From the NCBI RefSeq assembly GCF_006345805.1, contig NC_043000.1:55428001-55492000 (forward strand): 64,000 nucleotides of DNA, in the 5' to 3' direction. A model generated the notes under the pieces. That model was not told the DNA's origin. It ran no database searches and worked only from the letters and a program-made list of their open reading frames with translations. Shown here one piece after another: positions 344 through 62,088 of this stretch. Position numbers and translations under genes: made by a program. Each line of letters starts with the position of its first letter. The stretch's first letter is position 1. The stretch is from Octopus sinensis. Taxonomy: Eukaryota.

Positions 344-937
344 TATCGAGGGGAGAAAAAATCATTTTTAAAGGATTATCAATATTAATCAGTCTCTCAC
401 GATACATATAGTAGTTATATTAATTTGGAAGAAGCAACCATATATTGTGTATATGTATTTGTGTAAGTAGGTATGTATGTACGTATGTATGTATCAATAT
501 CATATTCATTACCATGACCAAAAACGACTCGAGGTAACACTGTCTTTCATATCTCTCAAACATTCTCAAAGCATTCACCATTGAAAGTCATCCCGCTCCA
601 ACACGCCAAACACGTCCCTATTTGTGATCAGAAAACTCGAAGGAAATCCCACTAGAGTCATACAAATACTGTCTTTCTGGACATCGAGAGAACACACATG
701 CTTTTTTACCAACATGATATGACCGCTCATCCTAGTCATGATGCACTCAGCTAGAGTTCTCTCAATCAATCAGTTTGTGGGAAAATATTAGCCTTCAACA
801 ATACTGATACACAGCTCAGATGTGTCTACAATGTAGCACTGATGCTATACCTGGGACCAGGCAAATGCTGCCAACATTTGCACACATACACACACACACA
901 CACACATACACACACATACACACACACACACACACAT

Positions 938-1041
<104 letters not shown>

Positions 1042-1258: not shown

Positions 1259-3232
1259 TATCGAGGGGAGAAAAAATCATTTTTAAAGGATTATCAATAT
1301 TAATCAGTCTCTCACGATACATATAGTAGTTATATTAATTTGGAAGAAGCAACCATATATTGTGTATATGTATTTGTGTAAGTAGGTATGTACGTACGTA
1401 TATATGTATCAATATCATATTCATTGCCATGACCAAAAACGACTCGAGGTAACACTGTCTTTCATATCTCTCAAACATTCTCAAAGCATTCACCATTGAA
1501 AGTCATCCCGCTCCAACACGCCAAACACGTCCCTATTTGTGATCAGAAAACTCGAAGGAAATCCCACTAGAGTCATACAAATACTGTCTTTCTGGACATC
1601 GAGAGAACACACATGCTTTCTTACCAACATGATATGACCGCTCATCCTAGTCATGATGCACTCAGCTAGAGTTCTCTCAATCAATCAGTTTGTGGGAAAA
1701 TATTAGCCTTCAACAATACTGATACACAGCTCAGATGTGTCTACAATGTAGCACTGATGCTATACCTGGGACCAGGCAAATGCTGCCAACATTTGCACAC
1801 ATACACACACATACACACATACAAACACACGCTATGTCTCTCTCACACACACACCTACATGCTAACTGAACTGCATTCAGCAAAGAGTCAACCCAACAGA
1901 TTTGTATAAAATTATTACTGTCACGCAATTCTGTGTGTTTTTCCTACCGGTGTTATAAAAGTTTCTGCTCCTTGGATACGCAACTCACGATACGCAAATG
2001 AGTTAGTCTTGATTTTCACATCTCAACCACTCTCGCCACGTTTCCTGCGTCTATCCTGCCAGGTCTCGTAATAATCACTATGTCCAGTGAACATAAATAA
2101 TTTCAGTAGGAGGTGACCAGGCATTTCATATCTGGTATTTTATAACTGTCTGCATAATAAAGATAATTAATAAATGAAGTTGTGTAGTGTTGAAGTGTGT
2201 CATATCGTAGTTCAGTAGATTTTAATTAGATAGGCCTTCTGAAATTTCCTCCCTAATCATGTGTTTACACTAAGTGTTGAATTAGAAAGTTTTCCAGGAA
2301 AAGAAAAACAATTTTTGCCAGTGTCGGTGAGTTTGCATAGGGTTAGGGGAGCTTCCTAATACATATATTCTCCAATCTGTTACAGTTAAAACTTTTTGAT
2401 AGAAGAAATGCATCTCAACACATGAATGCTAAGAATCTTTCCAATAATGCTACAGCACTGCAACTGCTTTTGTCTTTACTGTATATTGTCTACATACATA
2501 TGTGTATGTGTGTGTACTTAAATTAAATGCTTATAATAAATCATGAATTGCGGGCCCAGTTACAATTCCAAAATATATCTAGTTTGAATATCTCTATATG
2601 CTTTCAGTGGTTTCTATACACTACAATATTAATGAATATTTACTGATTAAGCCATTGCAAGTTATTTAGCAACAACCCCTTATAAATCTATTTCGATTTT
2701 CCTACAAGGGTTTACTTTTATAAGTACATTATTTAGTTATCGAGAATAACGGTTATCCGTACACAATATTTTATTTATGCCAAAATTAAACGTAAATTGA
2801 TTCATATTTTTTCTTGTAGTTTCTTTCCATGGATACCTTTAAATAGAAGTATTACCAACGTATGCATATGCATGCACACATAGCAATAGTGTTTATTTGA
2901 ATCGTTAAGTCAAAACAATGCTATTTAAAAAAAACATGAGGCCTGTCGATGACTTTTACTTTTAACTTGTACGTCGATATTTCTTTCTAGAACAAAGAAA
3001 TCAACTAACAACACCTTTTCTCCAAACATTTCCTGAAGAAGTGTTCCTAATCCTGAAGCATTCTATTTCTTATAATTTGCATTGCTTCGACTTTATGAAA
3101 AATATAATTTTTTTAAATATAACTATTAGGTAATTTTTCGTGTAAACCATACTACACAACATTGATAATGCTAATATCTATTATAAACACTATTTGAACA
3201 GTATTCACAAAATGCTTCTATGCTTAGTTTTG

Positions 3233-3307
3233 AACCGATAGGTTCAATTTATTACTAAATCAAATAACCTGAAATGGGGTATCTGTGTATCTGTGAGTGA
3301 GAGATAG

Positions 3308-3358
<51 letters not shown>

Positions 3359-4214
3359 CAGACAGACAGACAGACAGAGTGTGTGTGTATAGAAATTTGG
3401 ATTTGGATTTATTTAATGCGGTGAATAAGCGATTTATAGAACTTAGATGACTTAACACCATTTTCGGTATATTAGAAAATGTATGATTTAAACGGAAAAG
3501 ATAGATCCTTGTCGATAAAACTCATTATACAAGCATTTGTTTTGAGAATGAATTGAAATCGTTTTGTGTCATCATTCATTTGGAATTCACGAAGTCTACG
3601 AAATATATATTTTAATAAATAAAAATAAATGTGTAAAGATAATGTAAACGCTAGATTGTAAAATTGCAGTATGAATTATTTCATTTTATTTAAAACATTG
3701 TTGTCTTTGAGTTAAAGCATGAAACAATAAGCCTTTCTTTCTATCCTCTTATAACTTTTCAGCGTTTAACGTTTAAGCGAAAATATTTCAGACTCTAGCA
3801 TACTGCAACTTTACTATCTAGCGTTTACATTATCTTTACACATTTATTTTTATTTATTAAAATATATATTTCGTAGACTTTGTGAATTCCAAATGAATGA
3901 TGACACAACCCGATTTCAATTCCTTCTCAAAACAAATGCTTGTATAATGAGTTTTAACGACAAGGATCTATCTTTTCCGTTTAAATCACACATTTTCTGA
4001 TATACCGAAAATGATGTTAAGTCATCTAAGTTCTATAAATCGCTTATTCACCGCGTTAAGTAAATCCAAATCCAATTTCTATACACGCTCACATACACTC
4101 TGTCTGTCTCTCTTTCTCTATCTCTATCTATCTATCAATCTATCTCTCACTCACAGATACACACATACCCCATTTCAGGTTATTTGATTTAGTAATAAAT
4201 TGAACCTATCGGTT
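3233..4214. repeat. Long inverted repeat (fold-back): arms 3233-3673 and 3799-4214, ~125-bp spacer
   Basis: AACCGATAGGTTCAATTTATTAC... matches the reverse complement of ...GTAATAAATTGAACCTATCGGTT; inner ends AAAATTGCAGTATG / CATACTGCAACTTT; the (AG)n tract of the left arm is mirrored as (CT)n in the right arm. Confidence 0.93.
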
Positions 4215-5683
4215 GTAAATAACGTAATGTTAGGACGCTTGAGAATTGAACTATAGCCACATATTGGAATTCAACCGGAAACAAAAAAAAATTATTCAAA
4301 ATCTATTCAGAAACGGAATACTCTCACACACTAAATACATACATAATGTTTTTAATAATTGCAACACATATCTTCTATTCACCACGAGCGACAGCTTTTA
4401 CAGCAGTCACCTTTTACAAATTCACTTTCCATCTAAGATCACTTTCCAGCTAAGATCTCTGAACACCTCAACAATGCCTCAAAATGATGGAGTTGATAAT
4501 TAATTCCCTATTGGCAAATGGCAATTCATAACGCTCTGGATTGTATTCATTTCTGTATATGATGTATCCAAGATGTTCCATATCATTTAATGTAATTATA
4601 AGTTAGCAGTTAAATAATTTAAGGAAACAATATACGTGGTAAGTCGAGAGACAATTGGATGATATAGCTTTAGTGTCCGACTTTTGCGCCTTGTCATTAT
4701 TCGTTTAAATATTCATCGTTCAAAAGTCGATAAAGCACCAGTCCTGTAGGGACAGAGATGTTTAGATTGTTCTGAAAGGAAAATAATTTTTGCGTTTATC
4801 ATCAGTAGCAAGGTAATTAGAGGAAAGCCGATGGGTCACTAGTATTATAGTTAATTTATAAATCTTCTACTATAGACGTTATTATCTATCTACACTTGAC
4901 GTGCAGACAAATATGTTTATCGTAAATGCTTACGGTGTTTAATTTCACTTAATAACTATAATATAGAACATTTTCTATTCATATCCAAGTGTGTGGAAAC
5001 TATTATATAAATATACGATATTGACATAAACAACTCAATCTTCATTAAATGATATATTGCAAAATATTCTAAATGAATTTATAAAATGTTTATCCGAGTC
5101 AATAGTTTCTCTTCATTTCAATTAAATATAGATGATTCATTTCACATTAAATTCATTAAAATTTTCTTTGTGAAGATACATTCTATTTACTATCTTCTCT
5201 AAGAAGCCTAACAAAAGTGATGGGCAAGCATTGAAGATACTATATCGGTATATTTTGCAATTATATGACTCTAAATATAATTAATTTTCTAATTAATAAA
5301 AGAAGAGGAATTGATAGAATTAAAAGCATCTGAATATGTATTTCAACTCAGTTGCTAATAATCATAAGATTCCGGCAAAATAACAAATGAATGAGAATGT
5401 AAAAGACGTACTATTTCACTATTTTTATCATTTCTTTCCTCAGCTTAAGCATCTTAAAGTGACAACAAAACTCCCTGTAGTAAATCTATGAGCATTTTAA
5501 TTAGATGTAATAGCATTTATCGTTGCACTAAAAGACAATTCCATACTCACCAATGCTCGGAAACTGGTAGTAAAACCATTATTGAATCACGAAATATTAG
5601 AAAACCTATGTCACGGCGTAACTTTTATGGCGTAGGTAAAGAACAGAAAATTCTACATCTAACCTGAATAAAATTATATTCTA

Positions 5684-9215: not shown

Positions 9216-9988
9216 GCGCGGCCGCAAGTTGGTAAGAAGCGCTACACACTGGTCACTGCTGAGAAATCCGTCAGGGGGTAGAAAATATTTTATGTGTTCG
9301 TATGTGCGTTTAATCGCGCGGCCGTCAGTTGGTAAACAGCCCTACACAATGGTCACTGCTGGGGCATCGAAAAGCCGACTGTAAAAGTCCGTTTACCATC
9401 CGGTCTCTGGCGAACAATATATGGAAGAGCTCGGAGACACAAGGTTGCACTTCCTTCTGCCCCTATCAAATGGGAGGGGCAACCGACAAAATTGACCATT
9501 CCAGCCTGTAGCTTGAGTTCGTATTCTTCAATCGCCATATTAGCTTGCTAAGTCCCGTGGTCTGGCATTTATTCACGTCTCGAAAAGTTGCGTAATGGTT
9601 GGAGATTCGTAAGGCCGATGCCCCATTGGCGGCGTTATACTTATCTTGCTTATAAATAACGCTTATAAATAATACCTGCACCCGGTTACACTACTTATAT
9701 GAAAATAGCCCTTGGAAATAAATTTTGAAAAAGCTGTTAAGAGAAATATTGCAAGGGGAATTACTCCCAGGAGATGAATGGTGTTTTGTTTTGACGACGA
9801 GGGGTTTCTTTGACAAGGCATGATTAGACGAACACACGCACACATAAAATATTTTTCTGCCGCCTGACGGAATTTTCAGCAGTGACCATTGTGTAGGGCT
9901 GTTTACCAACTGACGGCCGCGCGATTAAACGCACATACGAACACATAAATTATTTTCTACCCCCTGACGGATTTCTCAGCAGTGACCA
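9216..9988. repeat. GC-rich element with ~100-bp subunits, tandem on the left and inverted on the right
   Basis: GCGCGGCCG..TTGGTAA..CTACACA.TGGTCACTGCT at 9216 and 9316. 9251-9360 is the near-perfect reverse complement of ~9878-9988, with a further partial inverted subunit at ~9826-9888. Inner GGGGCATCG / CGATGCCCC pair at 9361 and ~9620. Confidence 0.85.
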
Positions 9989-16528: not shown

Positions 16529-16746
16529 TTGGTTTCAAATTTTGATAGAAGACCGGCAATTTCAAATGAGGGACCAGGTTGATTACATTGATCCCCAGTG
16601 TTGAACAGCAACTTATTTTATCGACCTCAAAAAAGGAAATGCAAAATCGAGCTCGGCGAATTTGAACTTACTACGTAAAGGCGGACAAAATACTGCTAAG
16701 AATTTTGTCCAGTGCCGGCGTGCTAACAACTCGGCCAATTCACCGT
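16529..16746 (-). mobile_element. tRNA-derived SINE, family A
   Basis: Reverse complement has GTTAGCACGCCGG, B-box-like AGTTCAAATTCGCCGAG, GTCGATAAAATAAGT core and AAAATTTGAAACCAA tail, all shared with other copies in the window. Confidence 0.8.
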
Positions 16747-26855: not shown

Positions 26856-27053
26856 TCGTCGAGATGGCAGAATCGTGAGGCCGTCGGGCAAAATGCTTAG
26901 CAGCATTTCGTCGAAGCTTAAATGTCACCGGAGTCGACTTTCTCTTTCATTTCAGGGTCTATAAAATAAGTACCAGTTGAACACTAGGATCGAGATAATC
27001 GACTTACTGTCTCTCCAAAAATTGCTGACTTTGTGCCAAAATTTGAAACCAAT
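26856..27053 (+). mobile_element. SINE family A
   Basis: TGGCAGAATCGT A-box-like head, GGGCAAAATGCTTAGC, ATAAAATAAGTACCAGTTG and TGTGCCAAAATTTGAAACCAAT tail. Confidence 0.8.
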
Positions 27054-30686: not shown

Positions 30687-30890
30687 TGGCAGAATCGTTA
30701 GACCGTCAGACAATATACTTAGCAGAATTTAGTTTGTCTTCACGTTCTCAGTTCAAATTCTGCCGAGGTCGACTTTTCTTTTATCCTTTTGGTGTCAATA
30801 AAATAAGTATTAATCAAACACAAAGGTCGTTGTAATCGACTTACCCCGTCTCCCAACTCAGCTGGCCTTGCGCCCAAATTTTAAAATAAT
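30687..30890 (+). mobile_element. SINE family A
   Basis: TGGCAGAATCGTTAG, AGTTCAAATTCTGCCGAGGTCGACTTT, ATAAAATAAGTA. Confidence 0.8.
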
Positions 30891-30910: not shown

Positions 30911-31116
30911 GCGCTGAGTTGCCAGAATCGGTAATACGCCGGGAAAAATACTTGCCGGCATTTCGTCCGTCCTTACGTTCTGAGTTCGAATTCCGCAGAT
31001 ATCGACTTTGCCTTTCATCCTTTAGATGTCGAGAAATTAAGTACCGGTTGAGTAACGCGTGCGATATAATCGACTTAGACCAATCCCGAAATTGCTAGTC
31101 TTGAGCCAAAATTTGG
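30911..31116 (+). mobile_element. SINE family A, tandem with the previous copy
   Basis: CAGAATCGGTAATACGCCGGG, GAGTTCGAATTCCGC, GACTTTGCCTTTCATCC, TAAGTACC. Confidence 0.8.
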
Positions 31117-37339: not shown

Positions 37340-39940
37340 TTCTATGTTTGATTTTTGCTTTATGTTTGTACAAGTTGGCTCCAATTCTCACCCAGAGACC
37401 TTAAGAGACAACAGGTTGGAAGTTCACGTTGTTGTTATGCCTTACTTCCCAAGCTAACCTGTAATTTCTATCGGATTTTCTCTCTTATCGCATAACTTGT
37501 CAGCTGGGTATGCTATATCTATGATCCAACATCATTTGCTTTCTTACTCAATTAACACTATATCTTGTTTCCTATTCTCTATCTCATGGTCACACTGAAT
37601 CATAAAATCGCATAAGATCTTCGCATTATCATTTTCGGTGATGCCTTCGGGTTTATTTTATATTCGTACGACTTTTTTGCTCTGTCAAGTCCATACTTGT
37701 TGCAAAGTTTCCAATGCTATATTGTCATGACGTCTCTTATATTTTCTTTGGGCTAGTGGAGTACATTGACTGGTAATATGCCATTCGGTTTCCCAATTTT
37801 GTCCACAAATTCTGCACTTATCTCTTTCTGATGTATTGTCTATTCTGTATTTAATGTAATTTGTACTTAATGCTTGCTCTTGGGCAGCACAGATTAGAAT
37901 CCCCGTTTCCGGTTTTAAATCACTTTTAGCCATCCATAGCTATCTTTTTTCTCTGTCTTATCTTCAAAATCCCTATGAAATTGTCCATGCATTCTTTTCT
38001 TCATCCACATATTTTCAGTTTCATTCATTTCCACGTCCTTGTACTGTGCTTTATATTTGCAATTATTTCCAATAATAGTGGTTCTGTGGCTTATTTTATA
38101 TACCATGCTATATTGTTTTCTTATGCTCTAACAAGGTGTTCGTATCCAGTCACTCCTCTTCCCCCTCTTTTTCTTAGTACATACAATCTGTATGTGTTAC
38201 TTTTTGGGTGAGTATCCCATATCTAGTTAGCGACTTCCTTGTCTTTCTGTCTAAGTTGTTTAGTTGGTCTAACGTCCATGCGATTAACCCTGCTCCATAT
38301 CTAAGGAGTAAAACTACCCAGGTGCTGATAGCTTCAATCTTATCCCGTCCATTTAAATTTAACTTAATGATCTGTCTCAGTCTTTGTAAGTACTCCACCT
38401 TAAATCTTTCAGTCATTTCTTTCTGCATCAATTTATCAATTTCCAATATCCGCAAGTACTTATAGCCCGTCTCTTCTATCTGGTTCATAACCTCCCCCGT
38501 CGGTATCCTTATCTCGTCCATACATTTGATTTTGCCTCTCTTCATCCCTATCACACCACAATTTTTCATTCCAAACTCCATTCTGATATCAGCACTGAAA
38601 GTATACATCGTATCAACGTGGGAACTGACTTGTGATTCATCTTTACCATAAAAATTTGAGGTCATCCATGAACAAGTGGTTGACATTCGTTGGTGACTTT
38701 TGAATACTTACCCAACCATTGCTTTCCCCAAAATCAGTGTTAGTGGTACCATGCACAGTACAAGGCAGTCCCCTTGAAAGATGCCTCTCCTCATTTCTGT
38801 TGTCCCTAAACATCTTCCATATGCTGTCAGTTCCGTCCTCCACTTCACCATAATTTTCCAAGCAATCGCTCATCATTCGATGCAATACAAAATAGGTTCA
38901 TACGTTCCATAATCCAAGAATATGGGATCATATCGTATGCCTTACAATAATTTATCCATGACATAGCTAAGTTAGTTTTCTTCCTCTTGCATTCTCTAAG
39001 TACAGTTATGTCTAACAGGAGTTGATTGTTGGTGCCTCTGCACTTACGCTTGCAGCCCTTCTGCTCAAGAGGGAGAACTCCATTTTTCCAAATGTCCGTA
39101 CATTCACTCTGCCACTATTCCAGTCAATATTTTCCACATAAATGGCAATAATTTTCTATCGTATTGTCTTTTTTGATGTTTTACAAACTGAGCACTCTCC
39201 TACCTATTGTCAACCACTCTGGTGATACTTGGTCGGCATTTAACAAGGTGTTGAGTTATGCAGCTATTCGTGTATAACATTCACCAAATCTATTGATCCA
39301 GTAGCCTTGAACTCTATCTGGTCCATGGGCCTTCCAGCTGCCCGTGTTTTTGCCGATTCCTTCCCTTCCCTAACTGAAATGACTATTTCTGCTTGATTGT
39401 AACAGACTGCTGCTTGTTTCAGTTCTTGCAACCATTCCGCATCCTTCTTGTGCTCCAAGCCTTTCTCCAAATGTTACGCCAAAATCTTTGACTATCAATG
39501 TTGTATGGTATCAACTGTTCACCTGTACAGTCTCCATTTATTTCTTTGTAGAATCCCTTCTAATCTACTCTGAATAACCTTTTCTGTTTACAACCCTTCA
39601 TTATTTGGTCGTTCTGCTACGAGATTACATTTATCAGTAGGAACTGTATTTTCATCGTTTCTTCCGCAGCTGTTTTCCAATACCCATATTTCGATAGCTT
39701 CGAGCTCTACTTCTGTGAACATAATCTCTGTTCCGTGAGTTGAAACAATCATCATTCTCTCTAGTGATCATATATACGTTGTCGGTATCCCCTAAGTTGA
39801 ACACCATTTTTGTCTTCGGTGTTGCTCAGGCAGTAACATTCCATGACCACAGCATTGATTTTTTTGTTCTATCTACGCCTTGTGTGCTGGTTCCTTGCCG
39901 GATGGAGTCCGACCAGTATCTCCGAGCCTGCCGGGTGTAA
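37340..39940 (-). mobile_element. R4/Dong-like non-LTR retrotransposon (RT, CCHC finger, RLE), decayed and internally deleted
   Basis: NHLFMDDLK (RT catalytic motif), IRMEFGMKNC, YKYL, LRYGAGLIAW, MHGQF, AAQEQAL.TNY..CRICGQ..E..WHITSQC..RRHDNI, KILCDFMIQCDHEIENRK; the 3' end abuts (TAA)n. Confidence 0.88.
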
Positions 39941-43182: not shown

Positions 43183-43672
43183 ACAAGAGGAGACATTGAA
43201 GGAAGCGCAGAGAAAGGAGGGAGTATGGACAGTTGCTGGGAAAAAGAGAAAGGACAGAAAGAGGTGGAACCACAAACCGCCCCACCCCACTCACACCCGC
43301 TCAGTCCCACCCCTTATCCGCAGACACCAAACTCACCCATTCCCCTTCTTTACAAAACAAAAAGACAGAAGAAAGGAAAGTGTACGCGAACTTAAAAAAG
43401 TTACCGGATAGTACGAGGTACAAAGACTTAATAAAGTAGCATAGATAGGATATATTAAGGGACACACCTTATAAATGGTGAAAGGAAGAAATGAGGCTGC
43501 TTGGTGGGGCAAGTAGTCCATTTTCATATTCATTTCATTGTTTCAATGCTTGTACATCTTACGCTTTCCATTTTAATTTGTATATTTATTTAATTGTCTG
43601 TGTTATTTTTGCATGTCCCCACGTATGTTGTACTAAAACCTGTATATACCCGTTATGGGAAATAAAGAAATA
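43183..43672 (+). mobile_element. 3' part of an ORF1-only retroposon, diverged relative of 43689-44854
   Basis: Shares AAAGG..AATGA.GCTGCT..GTGGGGCA, TTTTCAT..CATTTCA and CCCCAC.TATGTTGT, and a terminal AATAAA, with the downstream copy; ends at AGAAACGTTAGCACGC. Confidence 0.65.
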
Positions 43673-43688
43673 AGAAACGTTAGCACGC

Positions 43689-44854
43689 TATTCGGTGTTT
43701 GTTAGTTATTTTGATAGTAATCTTCACGGTGTTAATATCGTTGTGGTTTTGTGTCCGTGTTTTTTTAATATTTTATAAATCTCTTTGCTGCTTTGCAGCA
43801 ATTTGTCTGTGCTTCCCCTCCTCATAGATGAGGGACCGTTTAGTGAAAAAAATGTCTGAAGAAGATTTCAGCTTTTCAGATATGTTGTCTACAGATATGT
43901 CGTTCGGAGTAGTGGAGGTGAGTTTCAAGGGAAAATCAACAGCAAAAAAGCACTCAGCGACTACCATTAAGAGTGAGGAAATGGTGCTTTTGCCCACTTA
44001 CCGTGGATAACGTGCGACCACAGTTAGGGTGGAGGGAAAATCCGCCTGAGATAGATGTAGCCTGGATAGCAGCCGCTGTCCTTCTGGGAAATGAGGACAA
44101 CATAGCGGTTCTCCAGGCCACAAAAACGCAAAGTGTTATATGGAAGGGACAGATACTGGACATAATTATTCAAGGTTCAACCGAAACCCTAGAAAACTTT
44201 ATAGAAACAATAATTATGGACGACGTGACACTGTGGGTCAGGGTGGAGGACAGAATCAATCGATGCTTTAAATGTGGTCTGAAAGGCTAAACCAGGGCGG
44301 ACAGCCCTTCACAGACCGAAAGGACGGATATACAAGCGGAAGAGCCCCAGAAAGAGAAAGAAAATAAACAGAAAACAATATCAACAGAAGTAGAGAAAAA
44401 AGAAAGACAACGAATGGGAAACAATAGGAAAAAGGAACAAGAGAAAAAGAAAAAACTTAAACCCCATAACCACATTATCCCCATGACATGACAACATAAA
44501 GGGATGGCACTGTTGTACGTTGTGCTCGGATGAACAGAAAGAAAAAAAAACAAGATTTACAAGAGGATATAGGTTTTGGGAGGTGAAATAGGATTGGGAC
44601 GTATTACAACACTATATGACATACGAGGAAGTGGTGGAAGAATTTTTAATCTATATTCTAGCGGGAACGAAGTTTAAAAGGTACTAATGAAGCTGCTATG
44701 AAGTGGGGCAGAGTGGCTTCATTCCATTTTTCATTTCACTTTTCATGTCATTTTTTCATACGTTGGTTCTAATTATTTCCTCTGTTTCTATAACCCCACA
44801 TGTTGTGTGTTGTTCCCTCTGTGTTCGCCCCGTAGTAGGTAATAAAAAAACTTT
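43689..44854 (+). mobile_element. ORF1/Gag-like (zinc-knuckle) non-autonomous retroposon with 16-bp TSD, inserted in a SINE head
   Basis: AGAAACGTTAGCACGC at 43673-43688 and 44855-44870. Broken ORF from 43828: FGVVEVSF..LLPTYRG*RATTVRV/PPEIDVAWIAAAV...RCFKCGLKG*TRADSP (decayed CX2CX4HX4C), then a K/E-rich tail. AATAAA lies near the 3' end; no RT is present. Confidence 0.75.
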
Positions 44855-45050
44855 AGAAACGTTAGCACGCCGGGCTAAATGCTTAGCGGCATTTCGTCTG
44901 TCTTTAGGTTATGAGTTCAATTTTCGCCTCCGTTGACTTTGCCTAGGCGATAAATTAAATACCAGTTGCGAACTGGAATCGATCTAATCGACGGGCTTCC
45001 TCTCCAAAAAAACTCGGGCCTTGTGCCTAGAGTAGGAAAGAATTATTATT
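44855..45050 (+). mobile_element. SINE family A, interrupted at its A-box
   Basis: GAAACGTTAGCACGCCGGGCTAAATGCTTAGCGGCATTTCGTC..GAGTTCAA..GACTTTGCC..GGCCTTGTGCCTAG. Confidence 0.82.
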
Positions 45051-47524
45051 CTACCAGTATTCGTGTTGACATTGTTTATTACTACTTTTGTGCTCATTGA
45101 TGTCTCTAATGATCGTGTAAAGACTCGTCTGAGTGTTGTCACATATTTCTTGCATTCGTTTCATTAAATGTTTCAATATTGAACTTTCCCATAGGTAAAC
45201 TGATTATTCACTGCTTTGTTGTTGTGCTAGTGTTTGGCATTACGTCCTTAGTGATATTTCTACTGTGGAGGTATTTGTCACTTATACATTAATTGCAGTT
45301 TCCCTTACATGGTTTGGATTTTACCATAGTGCTCTACTTTGGAGTGGTATCGTCTACTTCCCGGTTTCTATTTATTACATATATTTCGTGAGAGTAATAC
45401 TGGTCTTCTAAATGTAATTTTTTATAAACATTTCATAGAATAACGAATATTATATTCAAATATGCTGACGGCTATGTTGTACGGATTTGACAATTTCTAA
45501 GCCATGCGTCCGAACTTAAGATCGTATACCACAATTAAATACAATAAGGTTTCATCTTTGTCTCTTCAACGTTTGATACTTCCACCCGGTTGTCATTGCC
45601 ATCAATAAGTATTACTCAGCAATATTTTAGAAAGTTTGATAAGTTCTATTAATATGAACAAATGCTATCACACATCATATATTTTCAAAGCATATTAATT
45701 GTATAATTAACTGCTATCATTAATTACAAAAGACAGGTCTCTGAACATATTAGGCTTTTGCATATATGCTTTAAAACGTTCTAGAAAGACATAACATGCG
45801 TATGTGTAAGTATATATATATATATATATATATATACATAATACATATATATATATACATATATATATATACACATATATATTATATATATATACATATA
45901 TATATATGTATATGTATATATATATATGTGTGTGTGTGCGCGCGCACATATACATATATGCTAACGCGCACATGGTTGTGTAAGGATGTCTTGTTCTTTG
46001 GAACTAACACAAGTAGTAATAATATTATATATGCAGTCTTCCAAATATATTTATATTTGGGTATATGTGTATATATGTGTGCATACCTGAGTGTATGTCT
46101 GCCTTTGTGTGTATGTATATGTACGTCTGTGTGGCTGTGTTTATTCGTATATATGTTTATATGTATGCATGAGCACTTAGACGCAAAGGTTTATATTTCT
46201 TTCACAACAAATTATCATGGATTGCTGCTTATGAATTAAATATATCGATATATGTTTCTTAATTTACTAACAATAAATTCTAAATTACACTGCGCTAGGA
46301 TACTACAATTAATAAGTTTGCACGGCAAACTGTATTACACATGGTTGCATCAGACCTTTAGATTCAGTTTATACATAAAATAAACACATAGTAACACCAT
46401 ATAAAATATTATTCCCAGTTGCTAGGTAAACGAAACAGATTCTTAACACTCTTTGACAAACCTTTTGTAATATTGATTTAAAAGCTCTATGCCGTGGTAA
46501 TGGAGCTGATTAAATAATATAAATTTATAGATTATTGCATAGGATCAGTAGAACACATATGCATAATAGCTAAAGTAGCAAAATATCACATAGCTTTATT
46601 GTTTTGTTATTGGCTATAATTACCAGAGGAACTTATTAACACTACCTTTACTTAACGAAATCTTCTGTTATGAAATTTCAACAGCAGCGTTGTTTTAAAT
46701 GTAATAATCACCCTCACGTCTTTATAACTAATCGTAATCGCTGTACTTCCAGTTACATGGATGTTAATGGTAATTTGGCTCCGAAAGCACACTGTATGTG
46801 TGACGCGCATGTGCGTGTGTGTGTGCGTATGTTGCGTGTACGTGTGTGTGTGTGTGTGTGCATGTAGAAGTTTGAAAAGTAACACTCGAGTTATGTATAA
46901 GGAAAATAAGACAAGGTAGAAAATGCTAACATAATTTTATCGTGAAATATATTTTGTCATGGTTGGTACCAGCTGCAGTCTTTTCGAGTTATTCAACATT
47001 TAAACAAAGGTGGACATTAATTGAGGAGAAAAACAAATTTAAAAGAGAATTTTAAAGAAAAATTTTTATCAAATGTTTTGTACATATTTCCATAATCTTC
47101 AAATAGGATGACTTTTTCCTTTTTTCTATAACTTTGTCTTTTCCTTTGGAAGGCTCGGTGGGTAGTAGCAGGTCTGAGAAAATAATGTTTATGGGTGCAA
47201 AGAAATACTTGGTTTTGAAATTTGATAGTTTAAGTAGCAGCAGCCGAGCAAAGAGAAAAATAATAAGAAGAAGAACAAGAACAAGAAGAAGAAGAAGAAC
47301 AACAACAACAACAACAAGAAAAGAAGAAGTCGGGTGTGGTATGTCCCAGTAGTAGTGGTTGTTCGTGATAAAGATATATATATATATATAATGTTAATAG
47401 AGTTAGAGGTTTTACTACCGCTATAATTACCTATGTTAACCCTGGGCATACATATGCAGGCATATTATGCTCATAGGTTACAGGCTATTACAAAGTTAAA
47501 CATGAATTTATATAGAATCAAATT

Positions 47525-48230
47525 TAAAGTAAACAGAAAATGGAGAACTATTGATCAACAACAATTGAATAACGCCGATTATTACTCTTTAAAACAAACA
47601 GACTTTATGCCATCTAACAGCTGTTTCTGCTTCCAATGTTCCACAGAGTTGCCATTGAAAATTCTGAAAATAATATTCATCATATTTGGCAACACATCCG
47701 ATCTCGAACATGAATCTTCATCCAAGTGAAGAAAAATACATATGAGAAAAGAAAAGAAGAACAAGGAGGAGGAGGGCTTAATACATTTAAATCGTATCAT
47801 TTAGCATATGTGACACTTCAGGACATTCAATAAATTTTACTTTTGTATTACTTATACACCCTTTTACCCCTATAGAAAAATTAACCCACCAATTAATATT
47901 TTAAGTTTAGTCACTTACTCAACGTCCTGAAACGTCACATACGCGAAATTGTATGATTGAATTATACTAAATCTTTCTTCTTCCTCTCGAGGCTCTTGTT
48001 CTTTACTTTTCTTCTATGTATTTTTCTCTACTGTGATTAAGATCCGTGTTCCAGATCGGATGTGTTGCCAAATATAATGTATATCATTTACAGAATTTTC
48101 AGTGGCAATACCGTGGAACATTGAAAGCAGAAACAACTGTTAGATGGGATAAAGTCTTTTTGTGTTAAAATGTAATAATCGATGTTAGTCAATTTTTGTT
48201 GATCAATATTTCTCCATTTTTTGTTTACTT
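47525..48230. repeat. Long diverged inverted repeat: arms ~47525-47850 and ~47894-48230
   Basis: ATCTAACAGCTGTTTCTGCTTCCAATGTTCCAC vs GTGGAACATTGAAAGCAGAAACAACTGTTAGAT; ATTTGGCAACACATCCGATCT vs AGATCGGATGTGTTGCCAAAT; ATGTGACACTTCAGGAC vs GTCCTGAAACGTCACAT. Confidence 0.88.
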
Positions 48231-48261
<31 letters not shown>

Positions 48262-59763: not shown

Positions 59764-60201
59764 ATTAATAGTTATCGCCATGCTAATATGGCAGTCCAGA
59801 AATATAGGACGAATGCTGCCGTTGATTAGCTCCAAGATGCCATCGCCTCTAGCTAGCAATGTGACACACGAACCTGTGTTCGTTATAACCTTCGAACCGG
59901 AGAAGTCAGTCTCTTCCCCTTGCTGGTCAGGCATCTGCAGACTAGTTTCAGGGTGTTTGCCCCTTATCAAGGCAGAGCAGCCGAACCCAGCAGGCGTCAC
60001 TACTGACCGTCTGTTCGAAGGATTATTTACCTAAATGACCAGCAAGGGGAAGCGGCTGACCTTCCCTGTTCGAAGGTTATAATGGACACAGGTTCGTGTG
60101 TCACATTGCTAGCTAGAGGCGATGGCATCTGGGAGCCCATCAACGGCAGCATTCGTCCTGTGTTTCTGGACTGCCATATTAGCATGGCGATAAATATTAA
60201 T
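59764..60201. mobile_element. Fold-back element: ~165-bp arms (59764-59929 and 60036-60201) around a ~105-bp spacer
   Basis: AGATGCCATCGCCTCTAGCTAGCAATGTGACACACGAACCTGTGT is exactly inverted in the right arm; both ends are ATTAAT. Confidence 0.92.
59934..59976 (-). ncRNA. Degenerate minimal type I hammerhead motif in the fold-back spacer
   Basis: tctgcc-UUGAUAA-gggg-caaaca-ccct-GAAA-ctag-UC-tgcaga. Two core substitutions relative to CUGAUGA, 4-bp stem II, palindromic stem III, GUC triplet, stem I pairs 5 of 6. Confidence 0.55.
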
Positions 60202-61277: not shown

Positions 61278-61889
61278 GATAAATTCATTTCGCAAAAATC
61301 TTTCACAAAGTCTGTCACAGTTTCAAAGTCATTATGCATATAATACACAAGACACGAATCTGTTCAAATGATTAGGTTGGAAATGTGTTATAATGGTAAT
61401 GAAAATCTTATTATAATTACAAATATATATTGCTATGAGAATATTAATAATAAGAATCATATCAAACTGTGGTACAATGCCAAACAGTTTTGGAGAGGAT
61501 ATAGTCTATTTGATCGAATTCAGTAACTGTTTCATATCAATTTTATCGTTTCTGGCAACTTCAAATGAAATATGGAGCTCGATCGGATTTTAAAAGGAAG
61601 GAAAATCTGCGTAAACACTCAGCATAGAGCATTTACATTGTCGCTACACCGGCTGAAACTTTGGCATAAAAACAAGTTTAGAAAGGAGGTTTGACGATTG
61701 CATCAAGCTCAGTACTTAAAAGATACTTTATTTTGCGGACATCGATAGAATAAAAAGGCAAAGTCGATCATGATATAATGTGAAAACAGAATTAACAGCT
61801 TTTCAGAAACACTGCAATGCATATTCCTGATGGTATAATGTGTCTATAGAGATCGCTTCATTAATAACAATGATGATCATAATAATAAT

Positions 61890-62088
61890 CCTGTCTACGA
61901 AAGGCACACGGCCCGAAATTTGTGGGGAGGAGGCTAGTGGATTATATCGACCCCAGTGGGTCACTGGTACTCGAAAGGATAAAAGGTAAAGTCGACCTCA
62001 GCGAAATTTGAACTCAGAACTTAAAGACAGACGAAATGCCGATAAGAATTTTTCCCTGTGGGCTAACGATTCTGCCAGCTTGGCGCCT
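61890..62088 (-). mobile_element. SINE family A
   Basis: Reverse complement reads GGCGCCAAGCTGGCAGAATCGTTAGC..GAGTTCAAATTTCGCTGAGGTCGACTTT. Confidence 0.82.

Follow-up and report, generated by a model that had tools for sequence, protein, structure and literature searches.

A single SINE site in a 64-kb window of the Octopus sinensis genome (the window being the whole stretch of DNA that we analysed, 64,000 nucleotides) has received two insertions, each by a non-LTR retroposon that carries ORF1 only; the two belong to different families, which we refer to here as W and U. Both families insert sequence-specifically, and, judging by the tail and target that they share with autonomous elements and by arrays that contain both kinds, they likely borrow the ORF2 protein (ORF2p) of an autonomous LINE of Tx1 type that has this same SINE site as its target. 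In the mechanism that we favor, the RNA of each element would encode its own ORF1p, carrying RRM and CCHC domains, and this ORF1p would package that RNA; ORF2p acting in trans would then bind the 3′ hairpin-AATAAA tail, nick the SINE and prime reverse transcription there, and a second-strand cut ~16 bp away would give rise to a duplication. Because such a duplication would rebuild the site, later insertions would stack head-to-tail, and the two elements in the window would have arrived in succession. The element would gain a harmless landing site with >22,000 copies, and the SINE copy that it enters, with its A-box-like and B-box-like motifs >1 kb apart, would be silenced.

One SINE site and two ORF1-only families

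The locus is made up of the following features:

43183..43672, + strand: 3′ fragment of family U (ORF1 C-terminal remnant, 3′ UTR and tail), with 8 other loci at 81–88% identity to it
43673..43688, + strand: target-site copy 1, common to both insertions
43689..44854, + strand: copy of family W with internal deletions (full-length family members 1.62–1.69 kb)
43852..44690, + strand: decayed ORF1 with frameshifts, stops and two deletions (near 43896–43901 and 44473–44488)
44264..44305, + strand: broken CCHC zinc knuckle (PF00098 matched by 30/39 open relatives)
44815..44854, + strand: 3′ tail, a predicted short hairpin followed by AATAAA (44841–44846), without poly(A)
44855..44870, + strand: target-site copy 2, the 3′ part of the SINE A-box-like motif plus bases beyond it
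44871..45050, + strand: remainder of the host SINE, with a B-box-like motif at 44913–44925 and a second Tx1-tail insertion site near 44888–44898

An earlier note on this DNA had described a 1166-bp segment flanked by an exact 16-mer, followed by the rest of a SINE, and encoding a decayed ORF with the string RCFKCGLKG*TRADSP that ends near AATAAA, and all of this was found as described: AGAAACGTTAGCACGC stands exactly at 43673–43688 and 44855–44870 (spacing 1166 bp), the SINE continues from 44871 beyond the second copy, and both the string and the AATAAA are present. A chance match of the 16-mer was rejected; the window holds 3 matches at ≤3 mismatches against 0.21 expected. The note was also right that the segment lacks RT and endonuclease, as a tblastn search for ORF2 similarity anywhere in the 64-kb window came back empty; a Pfam search with three W-family fragments and the window frame matched no family, and the two named homologues of the window ORF are both from Octopus bimaculoides. 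Two of its other readings stood in part. The 16-mer, which it had equated with the SINE A-box region, overlaps the 3′ part of the A-box-like motif only; and the upstream segment, which it had taken for a diverged relative ending at the same target, does share the 16-mer but belongs to a separate family, U, with 63% identity to the W element across 218 3′-end columns.

Neither window copy is complete. The U fragment has lost its 5′ end beside a (TA)n(TG)n tract and carries a ~215 bp internal deletion near 43377, the W copy differs from the full-length copy L010 by two deletions (~320 bp and ~215 bp), and the SINE head is absent at this locus. Six W copies are 79–86% identical in pairwise comparison, from which it follows that the family is old; both window copies are old and dead. 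Elsewhere in the window, an open stretch of 177 codons (38177–38707, minus strand) resembles a LINE RT C-terminus by eye and has no Pfam match, four long inverted repeats are MITE-like (3228–4219, 9250–9988, 47522–48235 and 59764–60201; arms of 112–280 nt, 86–99% complementary), and positions ~1–500 and 900–1420 form a direct duplication at ~915 bp spacing.

SINEs are described as the largest repeat class in octopus genomes (PMC8967140, in the portion consulted). The SINE that hosts the two insertions is short, non-coding and of very high copy number: its exact uninterrupted head (a 29-mer) occurs 22,319 times in the 2.72-Gb genome (control 0), and at this density of ~1 per 120 kb a chance landing at exactly the insertion base of W is negligible. 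What we take to be its A-box-like and B-box-like motifs were labelled by eye against a consensus. Rfam gave no tRNA match for the SINE, ARAGORN made no call at thresholds 90 and 80 and two weak calls at 70, and the best z against 20 genomic tRNA sequences was 2.3; these comparisons do not confirm that the SINE is tRNA-derived. Insertion leaves the A-box-like motif upstream and moves the B-box-like motif >1 kb away, so the disruption of a Pol III promoter proposed in the earlier note holds as a separation of the two motifs, and the interrupted copy would presumably have lost its Pol III activity. Five further host-SINE copies in the window, uninterrupted and more diverged, lie at 16655–16727, 26869–27021, 30691–30776, 30924–31074 and 61881–62073.

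To place the window copy among its relatives, we scored the best 40 of 208 genome candidates, which resolved into 19 distinct W loci (the counts are therefore those of a sample), taking as members sequences with 77–86% identity to L010 and assigning weaker matches to other families. All W copies have a single common ORF1-to-UTR structure. No ORF2 was found inside the 19 W loci or the 8 U loci, and a lone ORF2 fragment sits 3′ of the truncated W copy L025, outside the element. W is a multi-copy, ORF1-present, ORF2-less family; its full-length copies contain no RT, and on this ground we rejected the possibility, raised in the earlier note itself, that the window element is a single deletion product of an RT-bearing element. 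At another W locus (L015, ~690–1000, reverse strand) the 5′ ~40 bp of the copy are tandemly repeated ~7 times. U, likewise ORF1-only, shares its target with W: the SINE site adjoins all 7 of its intact 3′ ends (two are shifted by 4–5 bp, and behind one of the seven stands another ORF1-only unit), the eighth locus is truncated onto the SINE body, and three full-length copies of 1.54–1.67 kb stand between SINE head and SINE body.

Both W and U insert sequence-specifically. The 3′ end is retained at 14/19 W loci (L025 was scored as missing it, its 3′ match being that of a neighbour), and 13 of these 14 intact ends adjoin the 16-mer with 0–5 mismatches and then a SINE body whose score exceeds that of each of 50 shuffles; ≤5 mismatches to the 16-mer were reached by 15/3000 random windows, two of the 13 positive ends are degraded (5 mismatches), and the sole exception, L302, ends at another repeat. 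Flanks elsewhere in the genome are thus related ones, and the idea of a non-autonomous, sequence-specific, ORF1-only family on a SINE, as first put forward in the note, is supported. Intact W 5′ ends are preceded by a target-like 16-mer in 10/10 cases, six behind a SINE head and four behind the tail of another element, with the qualification that four of the ten sites are poor matches or needed a 1-bp re-registration by eye. The insertion point lies directly before AGAA(A/T)CGTTAGCAC, the 3′ junction falls nearly always just before AGAA, and the target-site duplication measures 14–18 bp, its length varying by family.

These junctions also speak to a reading in which the SINE-like 16-mer and the body both belong to the element's own 3′ end and move together as one unit without any specificity. 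AATAAA stands only ~8 bp ahead of the junction, so that a transcript could run into the SINE, and a non-SINE junction variant of a young family recurs at different loci, which implies that the RNA carries part of the junction along. Nevertheless, we regard this reading as highly improbable, given that full-length copies have the SINE head on their upstream side, seamless with the 16-mer that precedes them, that the downstream SINE bodies are of different tail types, and that a SINE derivative and four or more divergent lineages have the junction in common. The alleles of the site point the same way: position 5 is polymorphic among the SINE copies sampled (A50:T19:C3), and its A/T allele is locus-specific, being equal on both sides in 13/15 paired insertions, which come from five lineages and include both alleles (of the two discordant pairs, one is a 1-bp registration error and the other, L015, is a true A/T discordance). 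The data support the 16-mer as a target-site duplication and not as an element end. When contigs of public runs were compared with a young single insertion, SINE copies elsewhere drowned the signal, and the skips seen in them are no demonstration of an empty site; no orthologous site lacking an insertion was observed.

The ORF1 protein and its lineages

The W ORF1 does contain the K/E-rich stretch with which the earlier note had it end, but a further C-terminal region of ~90 aa lies beyond that stretch and runs to 44690. In the window (44490–44690) and in relatives this region is fast-evolving and follows a proline-rich linker, and it may be present in autonomous elements as well. An alignment of 39 open ORF1 frames yielded a structure model (pLDDT 87), for which the top PDB matches were tandem-RRM folds (E ~3e-4, TM 0.3–0.45); zf-CCHC was matched in 30 of these frames and Transposase_22 in none of the 39. 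We therefore predict from the model an ORF1p with two RRMs and a CCHC knuckle, of type I and Tx1-like; type I proteins (RRM + CCHC) are linked to Tx1-type elements of non-mammalian animals in the excerpted text of PMC5203782. An LTR element or retroviral Gag was rejected as the source of this ORF on account of the RRM fold, nucleocapsid matches that span the knuckle only, and a search of the W element that found no terminal repeats other than the 16-mer. A link to the ZCCHC3-type ORF1 of fish was likewise dropped, as the ORF1 profile matches it at the knuckle alone.

The ORF1 query P0001 matches ORF1s that precede an APE-RT ORF2 at ~40% identity, and by this similarity the ORF1 of W is homologous to the ORF1 of autonomous LINEs. 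Among 18 ORF1 frames, which were chosen for being open, dN/dS is 0.05–0.18 between ORF1-only lineages where dS is finite (0.10 for family W vs. L062) and 0.23–0.65 between close copies; these ratios suggest that ORF1p has been kept under purifying selection. A young ORF1-only family of 1.75 kb (L220–L225, L233–L237 and L300; 93–97% identical) is found in long tandem arrays where many of the ORF1s are open. Relative to the locus L230, contigs from four public runs carry single-base insertions, and some frameshifts may be assembly errors.

Low dN/dS could also stem from autonomous ancestors, and would then be compatible with ORF1-only copies that autonomous elements shed again and again as short-lived deletion derivatives, and that never form a lasting lineage. 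HAL1 is reported to have arisen several times independently (PMC5753468, in the part consulted), and few autonomous families were sampled here. We consider this account quite unlikely, as it sits poorly with the one structure and the mutual identity of the W copies and with the open ORF1s that the young ORF1-only family retains in its arrays. A quick ORF1 tree (83/96 rows, unfinished, with frameshifted rows, few autonomous families, the window copy left out and some target labels misassigned by regex) puts eight autonomous rows together with one ORF1-only row (SH-aLRT 97) and outside two large radiations of ORF1-only elements, and the SINE target recurs in several clades; we take it as weak evidence for separate ORF1-only lineages.

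Autonomous elements and the choice of target

A driver for the SINE site exists. A tail-only pattern gave 234 genome matches, and reading 30 of these loci uncovered ORF2 elements that end at the SINE site. Other searches led elsewhere: an exact tail-plus-target pattern had 2 matches, both ORF1-only; among 45 tail-plus-target loci none carried ORF2 and three carried ORF1 within 1.5 kb, the rest being SINE-derived or truncated by eye; and the autonomous elements among 20 open-ORF1 loci lay away from the SINE site. Pfam finds APE, RT and zf-RVT in the ORF2 of two relatives, and the ORF2p of a copy of a sister subfamily has human L1 ORF2p as its best PDB match (E 5.5e-69). Judged by these similarities, the partner ORF2 is of a kind with the L1 group, having APE, RT and a C-terminal zinc finger as in the Tx1 clade, and membership of that clade fits, an assignment made by architecture and behaviour rather than by an RT tree against reference elements.

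The SINE-targeting autonomous subfamily is young (98–100% identical), and 4/5 of its copies start at SINE head plus target. At C2:57.14 Mb the order is SINE head and target, a 5.3-kb autonomous element, nine ORF1-only units and SINE body; at C2:169.36 Mb it is SINE head, autonomous element, two ORF1-only units and SINE body. The autonomous subfamily and the adjacent young ORF1-only unit have their first 73 nt (92%) and last 34 nt (97%) in common. The ORF1 of the autonomous subfamily is 33–37% identical to that of W, with which the subfamily has no DNA in common by blastn, and W against six autonomous elements gave two short blastn matches and nothing more; the hairpin-AATAAA tail is alike at the level of a motif among ORF1-only elements (W included), autonomous elements and the SINE derivative. 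The earlier note had called for an autonomous partner with the same tail and target, and one exists; because they are young, these APE-RT elements probably did not move the older W. Other autonomous elements occupy two more sites in the SINE (L235 and L300/L301 at site 2, L226 at site 3; ORF2p 69–74% to the others), and site 3 is where the SINE body meets its borrowed tail, which may record the origin of the SINE derivative.

Arrays of this kind could in principle be laid down in one event, by template jumping or by read-through of a multi-unit RNA, in which case both window elements would have arrived together. In 4/4 mixed arrays that start at a SINE head the autonomous unit is the 5′-most, and junction variants are common to different arrays, as a single event would predict. 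We nonetheless think it unlikely, because among 19 W and 8 U loci the U-W pairing occurs in the window only, W is preceded by different partners elsewhere, and the local T allele is found at all junctions of the array L218/L219. Successive insertion into a regenerated site remains our preferred account of the arrays.

The same target is used by more than LINE-like elements. Tail-plus-target junctions of one type have 1,341 exact genome matches (control 0), and the 30 that we read (L128–L157) comprise one ORF1-only element, no ORF2, and otherwise SINE bodies with a Tx1-type tail or truncations by eye; they look like a SINE derivative that took a Tx1-type tail and inserts into its own SINE family. 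By eye, one tail variant of this derivative goes to the A-box site and another to a site ~33 bp downstream. Other ORF1-only lineages end at other repeats, including a piggyBac transposase region (PF13843, E 5.6e-14). ORF1-only relatives sit at one site 5′ of this region in L028, L029 and L303 (in tandem in L029), and at least four more recurring targets of ORF1-only lineages were seen (L045–L048, L059 and L302; L064–L066 and L070; L194–L199; L207, L213 and L215).

The sister autonomous subfamily has an ORF2p 98% identical to that of the SINE-targeting one, and its copies are found at the SINE in 0/25 cases and at another repeat, with their own 17-bp duplication, in 18/25. Some of its loci (L243–L267, L348–L367) are tandem and a few lie at other sites. 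The two subfamilies differ in their 5′ ends and at a few endonuclease residues: residue 117 is N/S in 5/5 SINE-type copies vs. G in 17/22 others, and residue 198 is A in 5/5 SINE-type copies vs. V in 17/22 others, with A also in two copies at the other target. By motif, residue 198 falls in a loop that we equate with the target-selecting hairpin of L1 described in the excerpted text of PMC1950540. The two targets agree at 8/15 positions by eye. Two explanations are at hand: a minimal change in the enzyme could be what switches the target, or the RNA ends could contribute to its selection.

The second of these options can be pressed further, so that the RNA and not the endonuclease mainly sets the target: target-like sequence at the ends of the cargo RNA, from 3′ read-through or a 5′ extension, would pair with the nicked SINE and steer a loosely specific ORF2p. 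The near-identity of the two ORF2p with different targets would suit this, as would the differing 5′ ends (the SINE-targeting subfamily having those first 73 nt in common with the young ORF1-only family), the recurrence of junction variants at separate loci, and the pairing, by eye, of two SINE-derivative tail variants with two sites. Against it, residues 117 and 198 track the target, the likeness of the two targets means that a small enzyme change may suffice, and target choice is set mainly by the endonuclease according to the portion of PMC4494074 consulted; we hold steering by RNA to be doubtful, though worth entertaining. With similar reserve we mention a broader possibility, that the octopus hosts a modular Tx1-type community whose near-invariant ORF2p reaches different host repeats because the end sequences of the cargo RNA direct it there. 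If so, a trade in RNA ends would let autonomous drivers, long-lived ORF1-only lineages and a SINE with its own family as target move from one target to another, and the whole would amount to a naturally re-targetable reverse-transcription insertion system. The natural pair of ORF2 sequences, 98% identical and with different targets, isolates the determinant of target choice in APE-type retrotransposons.

Relation to known systems

In this system, LINEs and their ORF1-only hitch-hikers land on the promoter region of a SINE, which reverses the usual parasitism of SINE on LINE, and a SINE derivative appears to have taken a LINE tail with which it now inserts into its own family. ORF1-only lineages under apparent purifying selection would further provide a test case for why non-autonomous elements retain an ORF1p of their own. 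HeT-A, too, is arrayed in tandem together with an autonomous partner.

Several known systems share parts of this arrangement, and we compare them here as far as the excerpted sources describe them. HAL1 (half-L1), HeT-A and Ag-Sponge are ORF1-present non-autonomous LINEs that, like the octopus elements, consist of LINE 5′ and 3′ parts with ORF1 only and rely on the RT of a partner (PMC5786205, PMC5753468). Their origins lie in the L1, Jockey and CR1 clades, and a Tx1-type, TE-targeting, ORF1-only group does not figure in those excerpts. Mammalian L1 ORF1p is of type II (PMC5203782) whereas the octopus ORF1p is predicted to be of type I (RRM + CCHC), and since the ORF1 type differs, W is by this prediction not a HAL1 proper. 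Dada DNA transposons resemble the octopus elements in that their targets concentrate at the A box of tRNA genes, but they are DDE DNA transposons in real tRNA genes and the octopus elements are retroposons in a SINE (PMC8869645, in part).

Another parallel is Tx1L of Xenopus, which inserts into Tx1D (as cited in PMC4494074 and PMC1950540): it too has a sequence-specific APE endonuclease and a target in a piggyBac-type element, and a relative of W likewise targets a piggyBac transposase region. Tx1L is autonomous, however, and ORF1-only satellite families go unmentioned for it in the excerpts of these two papers. A parallel is also seen in the Tx1-Mar LINEs and SINEU-3 of crocodilians, with a 16-bp duplication and tandem insertions that sandwich it (Kojima 2015, PMC4494074, in part); there, as in the octopus, Tx1-clade elements and a non-autonomous client share one site in another TE. 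The target in that case is a Mariner DNA transposon (LTR elements and Harbinger in others) whereas in the octopus it is a SINE promoter region, and SINEU-3, a SINE that ends in poly(A), codes for no protein whereas the octopus clients encode ORF1p.

In the literature searched, whose scope stopped short of Repbase, Dfam, most subscription papers and supplements, we found no description of ORF1-only Tx1-type elements on a SINE or of the octopus system; a Repbase or Dfam entry for the octopus elements possibly exists, and the supplements of PMC4494074, which according to its excerpted text list Tx1 targets, may bear on novelty. Tx1 elements that target TEs have been described before, as have LINEs with ORF1 only; their combination on the promoter region of a SINE is what we did not find in that literature.
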